Assembly: GCF_003334785.1 (NCBI RefSeq)
Contig: NZ_QOWV01000032.1
Origin: Escherichia coli
GTDB lineage: Bacteria; Pseudomonadota; Gammaproteobacteria; Enterobacterales; Enterobacteriaceae
Length of the DNA: 19,881 nucleotides
Reading direction: 5' to 3' (one strand)
Of the stretch, positions 19,498 through 19,881 are shown one piece after another (within the stretch, counting starts at the first letter, position 1; every line of letters begins with the position of its first letter). The notes beneath the pieces were generated by a model. That model had not been told where the DNA came from. It saw only the letters and a program-made list of their open reading frames with translations, and ran no database searches. The translations under genes were made by a program, and so were the position numbers.

Positions 19498-19502
19498 CGT
19501 AA
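19478..19502 (+). terminator. perfect 10-bp inverted repeat (5-nt loop) overlapping the clpV stop codon; possible weak terminator or protein-binding palindrome
   Basis: TTACGTTACG (19478-19487) / loop TAATT / CGTAACGTAA (19493-19502) are exact reverse complements. AT-rich stem, and no immediately adjacent U-run (TGTTTT lies ~20 nt downstream). Confidence 0.3.
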
Positions 19503-19804
19503 CTGGGTAACTCACTGTTTTGATTTCTCCTGTACGGACGTCAACCTGAGCCATAAATGTCTGGTTTGTCATATGGCGATATGCCGGTCATGGCACGTGA
19601 TACCGTGACTGGCACCGTTATTCAACCGTGATGTCTGAATAACGGGCCACGGGTGAAGTCCTCTGAATACCCTGTGAGGATAATTGTTAGCGGAAGCGCA
19701 GGATTCCTGAAGTAAAATCTGAAGGGAGCCGGATACAAAATGCTGCTCTGACAACAGGGAGGGGGAAGGCTATAGTGGGCAGATGGTATACATTTTCCGA
19801 TGTT

Positions 19805-19881
19805 TGAGGTAGCCTGAGTTTAACGGACACTCCTTCCTGAAATAGAATGGCATCAGAAGGAGCTAATAATGAGCAGAAAAA
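19805..19881 (+). mobile_element. probable left end of an IS3-family insertion sequence, including the start of orfA (ATG at 19869), running off the window
   Basis: Begins with TG (TGAGGTAGCCTGAGTTTAACGG...). About 64 bp later there is an AAGGAG RBS and ATG AGC AGA AAA (MSRK...), the layout of IS3-family left ends and resembling the IS600-type orfA start as I recall it. Only 77 bp are visible. Confidence 0.45.

Follow-up and report, generated by a model that had tools for sequence, protein, structure and literature searches.

Which DNA follows tssH (clpV) on the Escherichia coli stretch analysed here (19,881 nucleotides, hereafter called the window), and does the insertion sequence (IS) that begins near its end mark the border of a mobilisable T6SS island? 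Our reading, to which we assign a probability of roughly 0.92, is that dead mobile elements are stacked in the spacer that separates tssH from a TagA-like gene on a virulence-type plasmid of E. coli: a decayed group II intron and, within it, a truncated IS600. The features of the window's end are collected in Table 1.

Using positions 19400-19881 of the window as a megablast query against the complete E. coli genomes (5,426), we found a 100% match in plasmid unnamed2 of strain FDAARGOS_1248 (NZ_CP069544.1, 80,965 bp; loci L001 and L008), hereafter called the source plasmid, and a 99.6% match in pWP7-S17-ESBL-04_2 (locus L005). The match is limited to 19400-19804 in 11 further records (~99%) and to 19400-19794 in 6 records of an M3-type lineage (~80%), and thousands of records match only from ~19791 on, at features labelled 'IS3-like element IS600 family transposase'. 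IS600 thus occupies this site in 2 of the 5,426 genomes, and 17 related plasmid records harbour the uninterrupted spacer. In the source plasmid the order is tssH, an IS3 pseudogene and a gene for a VasL-domain protein; window coordinates are those of L001 plus 13399. The other loci used below are those of pSTEC299_1 (L002), an O157 chromosome (L003), two plasmids with full-length introns (L006 and L007, the latter being pTB202) and p1_ST866 (L009).

Other genes of the source plasmid include eatA, an autotransporter gene with a frameshift, and nikA/nikB of the IncI1 type, and these, together with its pile of ISs, suggest an ETEC-type virulence plasmid. In pWP7-S17-ESBL-04_2, which has IS600 at the same site, the annotation gives tssM as frameshifted (L005 161-6113), and tssH is five codons longer, with a 2-nt indel near its 3' end. 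Because of these two lesions, the T6SS of that plasmid is probably already decaying.

Table 1. Features at the end of the window, with strands and the evidence on which they rest
Feature	Position	Strand	Evidence or remark
tssH/clpV (T6SS ATPase)	16969..19497	+	842-aa ORF; tssH in the annotation of NZ_CP069544.1 (100% identical)
Perfect palindromic hairpin ACGTTACG-TAATT-CGTAACGT across the tssH stop codon	19480..19500		Folding
Native tssH-distal spacer	19498..19574	+	Alignment, folds; 86% identity between lineages
61-aa antisense ORF, TTG start	19569..19754	-	ORF list; within the intron fossil
5'-terminal portion (domain I region) of a decayed group II intron	19575..19804	+	Nucleotide homology; IS600 interrupts at 19804/19805
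IS600 (IS3 family) positions 1-77	19805..19881	+	Identity to IS600 1-77; IRL from 19805
RBS AAGGAG	19857-19862	+	Upstream of orfA
orfA ATG (IS position 65)	19869	+	Window ends after MSRK

The first-pass annotation had noted a rise in GC content after clpV over ~300 bp of non-coding DNA with no convincing ORF other than a 61-aa antisense one. The rise is real but modest: positions 19498-19804 have 48.5% GC compared with 39.8% for the whole window, a value reached or exceeded in only 6.4% of 307-bp windows (~+1.7 sd), and the middle of tssH, at 52-54%, lies above it. All ORFs of at least 30 aa in 19498-19804 are antisense, the plus strand having none. The segment is therefore non-coding and GC-richer, as stated, but it is not anonymous DNA; its origin, described below, had gone unrecognised in the first-pass annotation.

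The first part of the segment is native spacer. The palindromic hairpin that spans the tssH stop codon scores as terminator-like on the minus strand, where a T-run follows it, and plasmids of the M3 lineage have lost 13 nt of it. A second, degenerate hairpin (19548-19567) lies within the native spacer, just upstream of the intron 5' end. As for structured RNAs, 19470-19585 does not fold better than shuffled sequences do (z = -1.2), and an Rfam match to CrcZ at 19438-19522 was discarded, since its 21 bits compare with a gathering score of 95 and it reflects chance similarity in A-rich sequence at the 3' end of tssH. No tRNA or tmRNA that might serve as an island integration site was found within the window.

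The remainder of the segment is recognizable by nucleotide homology. Without the IS, the spacer between tssH and the vasL-type gene is 701 bp long (L002 4099-4799; positions 89368-90068 of pSTEC299_1). A sensitive blastn search of PLSDB with this spacer returned 239 plasmid records at 60-80% identity; among the matches listed, spacer positions ~86-581 are covered with E values down to 1e-48, and most matches overlap the start of ltrA. Aligned with ltrA introns, the spacer is 68-70% identical over ~500 nt (E 1e-39 to 1e-48). In the window itself, blastn matches 19583-19764 to positions 5-193 of the L006 intron at 74.6% identity (E 3e-30), and the spacer matches the full-length intron across its nt 5-519 (E 1e-45). 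The reference introns at L006 and L007 are full-length, at ~1.92 kb: they score 139 and 137 bits with the Rfam model group-II-D1D4-3, 69 and 71 bits with D1D4-1, and 48 and 50 bits with Intron_gpII for domains V/VI, and both encode a 462-aa TIGR04416 RT/maturase (ltrA). The group-II-D1D4-3 model gives only 19.8 bits for the remnant at 19703-19777 and 23.4 bits in L002, below the gathering score of 32. By homology rather than by a structure model, then, the GC-richer 'non-coding DNA' is the 5' fragment of a decayed group II intron.

In a four-way alignment, collinearity extends from the first bases of the intron to ~22 codons of ltrA, where homology ends (~L002 4680). Beyond the window, past the IS, the rest of the remnant thus runs through domain IVa into those ~22 RT codons, and the RT start is retained, reading MMSREAQVQATA... 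in the remnant and MMINEAQAQATA... in the full intron. Domains V/VI were sought in the uninterrupted spacer, which yielded no Intron_gpII (RF00029) match at E<=1; nor do the 120 bp that precede vasL conceal them, showing neither an Rfam match nor similarity to the intron 3' end. An Rfam match to TMV_UPD-PK1 in L002 was attributed to chance. At the other end, the 5' splice site consensus GUGYG is absent, the window having AUAUG and M3 AUGUG, compared with GUGCG in the full-length relatives. Two placements of the 5' boundary fit the alignment: 19575 with a 4-nt insertion (G + GCGA + UAUG), or 19579 with a G1-to-A change. From these losses, the remnant is predicted to be unable to splice or retrohome. 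Its origin also explains the compositional shift after tssH, since the intron-derived part has 54% GC and its full relatives 58%, compared with 36% in the last 119 bp before vasL.

The full-length introns at L006 and L007 start 7 nt past strong hairpins with U-rich tracts (z -6.2 and -5.1), and in the M3 lineage an intact 8-bp stem, GAACCAGA-AAUG-UCUGGUUC, precedes the remnant by 6-10 nt. Bacterial class C introns insert just downstream of terminator hairpins (PMC3522654). From the two full-length insertion sites, we infer a class-C-like insertion behind the tssH-distal terminator, and the native spacer hairpin region at 19548-19567 is likely to be the original target site. As a separate observation on pTB202, an Rfam match to the Hfq-binding sRNA STnc490 (124 bits, L007 4882-5005) directly follows the full intron, on its 3' side, in the bcsB-bcsC interval.

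Is the fossil nevertheless maintained for some function? One alternative holds that the ~700-bp spacer, including 19498-19804, is a functional regulatory region of the vasL/TagA-like gene, in the form of a long 5' UTR, an sRNA or an exapted promoter. The spacer is indeed kept in all related T6SS plasmids across ~20% divergence, conservation is higher in the 123 bp next to vasL (86% identity between pSTEC299_1 and M3 plasmid A), and a sigma-70-like match of 10/12 positions is found at 19748-19776. Against this, promoter-like matches number 3 where shuffles give 1.3 +/- 1.2 by chance, and the absence of a fold better than shuffles in 19470-19585 also argues against a structured element. Between the same two plasmids, the remnant itself shows 79% identity with 46 gap columns, close to the identity at four-fold degenerate sites (76% in tssH and 63% in vasL), and it appears for this reason to drift at a roughly neutral rate. 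The spacer also tolerates disruption, by the 965-bp IS600 in one lineage and by an IS629-like insertion with a ~220-bp deletion in another. A regulatory function of the whole spacer is therefore distinctly unlikely.

The second of these disruptions was found in p1_ST866 (NZ_CP077647.1, L009 2697-3935), where an independent, decayed IS629/IS1203-like element, 84-86% identical to IS1203 and interrupted by internal stops, replaces ~220 bp of the intron fossil. At the intron 5' boundary of the same plasmid, a ~35-nt insert (TGAAGTGGCACACTGATTGGCCACCTGAACAGAGTGA) resembles a solo inverted repeat of the IS3 family.

We now turn from the decayed intron to the element that interrupts it. From its TG start, the RBS and the orfA-like ATG that follow, the first-pass annotation had read the sequence from 19805 on as the left end of an IS3-family element, and this reading holds. 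The sequence begins with TGAGGTAGCC... (in longer form, TGAGGTAGCCTGAG...) and belongs to IS600, a 1264-bp member of the IS3 group of the IS3 family, first described from Shigella sonnei. As a reference we used a complete copy from an O157 chromosome (L003 2516-3779, 1264 bp, ends TGAGG...CCTCA, TAT duplication), whose OrfB scores 352 bits with the NCBIfam model transpos_IS3. Within positions 1-77, the window is identical both to this copy and to a full IS600 on the source plasmid. The match is far beyond chance, since megablast of the window's IS end against annotated IS600 copies gives an E value of 7e-32 and, in the source plasmid, the similarity extends over 965 nt with 99.6% identity. There the element carries an intact 100-aa OrfA starting at IS position 65, an intact A7G site for -1 frameshifting at position 316, and orfB downstream; intact IS600 copies are annotated in RefSeq with a 'programmed frameshift'.

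The element is incomplete, however. Positions 1-965 of the 1264-nt reference align to the source-plasmid copy (L001 6406-7370), and the alignment then stops. A match to positions 966-1264 was sought beside this copy and none was found; its right end (...GTACACCTCA) and hence the IRR are absent from this copy in the source replicon, where the junction reads gattaccgggt/ggcatgcactgg (here and below, the slash marks the IS boundary). The matching right inverted repeat that the first-pass annotation proposed to look for downstream is thus missing. IS3-family transposases have an established DD(35)E architecture, and in the intact OrfB the glutamate is found 36 residues past the second D, in the motif 'APMES'. 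OrfB of the truncated copy reads 'HHSDRGSQYCAYDYRV' and then continues into spacer-derived sequence before reaching the 'MES' glutamate, so that the third catalytic residue is lost. With neither an IRR nor the catalytic E, the truncated IS600 is predicted to be unable to transpose. The RefSeq source record already annotates it as an IS3 family transposase pseudogene.

Comparison of the occupied and empty sites delineates what was removed with the right end. The empty site of pSTEC299_1 reads '...ttccgatgtt cacct ggcatgcactggcg...' (junction form '...ccgatgtt/cacctggcatgcac...'), and the occupied site of the source plasmid '...ttccgatgtt [IS600 1-965] ggcatgcactggcg...' ('...ccgatgtt[IS600 1-965]ggcatgcac...'). 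The right flank, ~8 bp, is therefore deleted together with the IS end, and the target-site duplication is no longer readable because the deletion took the duplicated triplet; intact copies retain theirs, TAT in O157 and GTT on the same plasmid. The latter copy is a full, inverted IS600 (L001 10288-11551), ~3.9 kb beyond the window end, beyond which lie further IS3, IS66 and other transposase fragments. It shows no difference from the truncated copy over 965 nt, an identity that suggests a recent intra-plasmid IS600 copy event followed by the deletion, presumably with the full copy as the donor and in that order.

As a side observation, three independent IS600 insertions have similar left flanks: cattTTCCgatgTT/ (window 19791-19804), cattTTCCtgaataT/ (L003 2502-2515) and acTTCCatggTT/ (L001, right of 11551). 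BLAST extended the O157 IS600 matches 14 nt into this flank. With n=3, the likeness ('TTCC-N5/6-TT') may be due to chance or to a target preference so far undescribed.

The first-pass annotation had further proposed that the IS3-family element forms the 3' border of the T6SS cluster and, with an IS21 remnant on the other side, brackets an island that could be mobilised or deleted as a whole. Several of its premises are correct: an IS3-family left end is indeed present, an IS21-family remnant does occupy the window's left edge (1-148), in the form of the last part of an istA of the IS100 type and an incomplete, truncated istB, and the plasmid is IS-rich beyond vasL. Upstream in the source plasmid (L008 7064-11074), the left flank comprises a partial IS1414, an IS100kyp istB, a complete IS1203 and the IS100 istA with its truncated istB. 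Statistical enrichment of IS3 and IS5 elements near plasmid T6SS loci has moreover been reported as a general pattern (PMC13098142).

The DNA beyond the window nevertheless contradicts the proposal. In the source plasmid, the spacer resumes straight after the truncated IS and is followed by a gene annotated 'VasL domain-containing protein', whose product matches the Pfam signatures ImpA_N (9.8e-06) and VasL (5.3e-08). We take this combination to be the architecture of TagA-type T6SS accessory proteins. A vasL-type gene also follows tssH in pSTEC299_1, M3 plasmid A, p1_ST866 and pWP7-S17-ESBL-04_2, and in fact in every related plasmid. The comparison of strains that had been suggested as a check on the bracketed island shows plasmids devoid of the IS with a continuous tssH-vasL spacer, the arrangement being kept in all 17 IS-free records. 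Because a T6SS gene lies beyond the IS and IS-free plasmids are collinear across the site, IS600 lies inside the tssH-vasL spacer rather than at the edge of the cluster. The true right-hand IS-rich flank starts ~4.5 kb past the site.

The arrangement also differs from that of a composite transposon, with different ISs on each side, a right-hand IS600 devoid of its distal end, and an IS that is not at the cargo boundary. Since the left and right elements belong to the IS21 and IS3 families, respectively, they do not form a transposon pair, and no transposase acts on both ends. The IRL faces the T6SS genes, so that the would-be outer end is the IRR, which is precisely the missing part. A composite made of the truncated IS600 and the full inverted copy 3.9 kb downstream was rejected as well: a separate GTT duplication flanks the full copy, and in IS-free plasmids the same place is taken by vasL with its neighbours. 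A bracketed, mobilisable island is very unlikely on these grounds, and for this IS600 copy the bracketing model is refuted by the source plasmid sequence.

Finally, it is extremely unlikely that a small protein is encoded here, for instance by the 61-aa antisense ORF. Although this frame exists and carries a single substitution in the 99%-identical pSTEC299_1, it starts with TTG and lacks an evident RBS, its equivalent in the 80%-identical M3 lineage contains stops or frameshifts in all three antisense frames, and its DNA is homologous to the ribozyme-coding segment of the intron on the opposite strand; we conclude that it is not a gene. Other spacer ORFs of 30-74 aa were rejected as small proteins, being unconserved in M3.

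For the stack of dead elements, we propose the following history. A group II intron first inserted, in the plus orientation, a few bases past the hairpin after tssH; its homology is documented above, and the event presumably took place before the plasmid T6SS lineages, now ~80-90% identical, diverged. The intron then lost everything beyond ~nt 520, that is, most of the RT/maturase ORF and domains V/VI, and its 5' GUGCG was destroyed, leaving an inert fossil of ~500 nt with 54% GC, under what looks like near-neutral drift. In one recent sub-lineage, IS600 entered this fossil at 19804/19805. Lastly, a deletion of ~308 bp took away IS600 positions 966-1264 and ~8 bp of flank (the duplicated triplet and ~5 bp), so that the IRR, the glutamate of the DD(35)E catalytic triad and the duplication of the target site are all gone.

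If the IS copy has any effect, the only plausible one would be on the vasL-type gene downstream, through polarity or promoter activity. The dead IS600, which is oriented in the same direction as vasL and has kept its IRL promoter region, orfA and frameshift site, or else the fossil with its 10/12 match, might alter the expression of the TagA-like gene, which we consider unlikely. If this were true, the nested debris would constitute a lineage-specific regulatory switch of T6SS sheath dynamics on an ETEC-type plasmid.

These results affect how the locus should be read. The T6SS cluster of this plasmid family extends past tssH and includes the TagA-like gene, and the IS at 19805 should be unable to mobilise anything. 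With the GC-rich spacer of ~500 nt explained as an intron fossil, it is no longer a candidate for a novel RNA or gene. It provides a small, clean example of how neutral intergenic DNA in a plasmid operon may gather an intron and then an IS600 or an IS629-like element, and the shared fossil could be used as a phylogenetic marker of this plasmid T6SS lineage. The main value of the analysis lies in a corrected annotation and its interpretation, and it touches on no long-standing question. Truncated copies of ISs are a routine finding, and the region as a whole is ordinary debris of nested mobile elements within a plasmid-borne T6SS cluster. The intron fossil carries no annotation among the listed records that hold the whole spacer, and represents an unrecorded case of a known phenomenon.

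Compared with complete IS600, the copy described here shares the IRL, the RBS, OrfA, the A7G site and the N-terminal part of OrfB with the first two catalytic D residues, but it lacks positions 966-1264, and with them the IRR, ~100 C-terminal OrfB residues including the DD(35)E glutamate, and the target-site duplication. As in the IS-flanked plasmid T6SS loci reported earlier (PMC13098142), IS3-family DNA is found close to a complete plasmid-borne T6SS; here, however, the IS is internal, defective and lineage-specific, a consequence of plasmid IS traffic rather than a handle for moving the T6SS.

The full-length plasmid introns (NZ_CP069499.1 and pTB202, NZ_CP029244.1) are collinear with the remnant at 68-75% identity from nt ~5 to ~520, share an RT start of the form MM..EAQ.QATA, have the same orientation as the upstream gene and are preceded by a hairpin just upstream of the 5' end, as is the remnant in the M3 lineage and, with a degenerate hairpin, in the window. 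In contrast with them, the remnant is devoid of GUGCG, of domains V/VI and of the RT/maturase beyond ~22 codons, and harbours indels throughout. Group II intron fragments are common in related bacteria, with 111 in 90 Enterobacteriales genomes, most of them distant from active introns (PMC3522654). The remnant resembles the fragments of that study by Leclercq and Cordaux (2012), being likewise inactivated, located on a mobile element, distant from active introns, present as a single orthologous copy and slowly degrading. It differs from them by its location within a T6SS cluster, where it has itself served as a landing pad for IS3-family elements.
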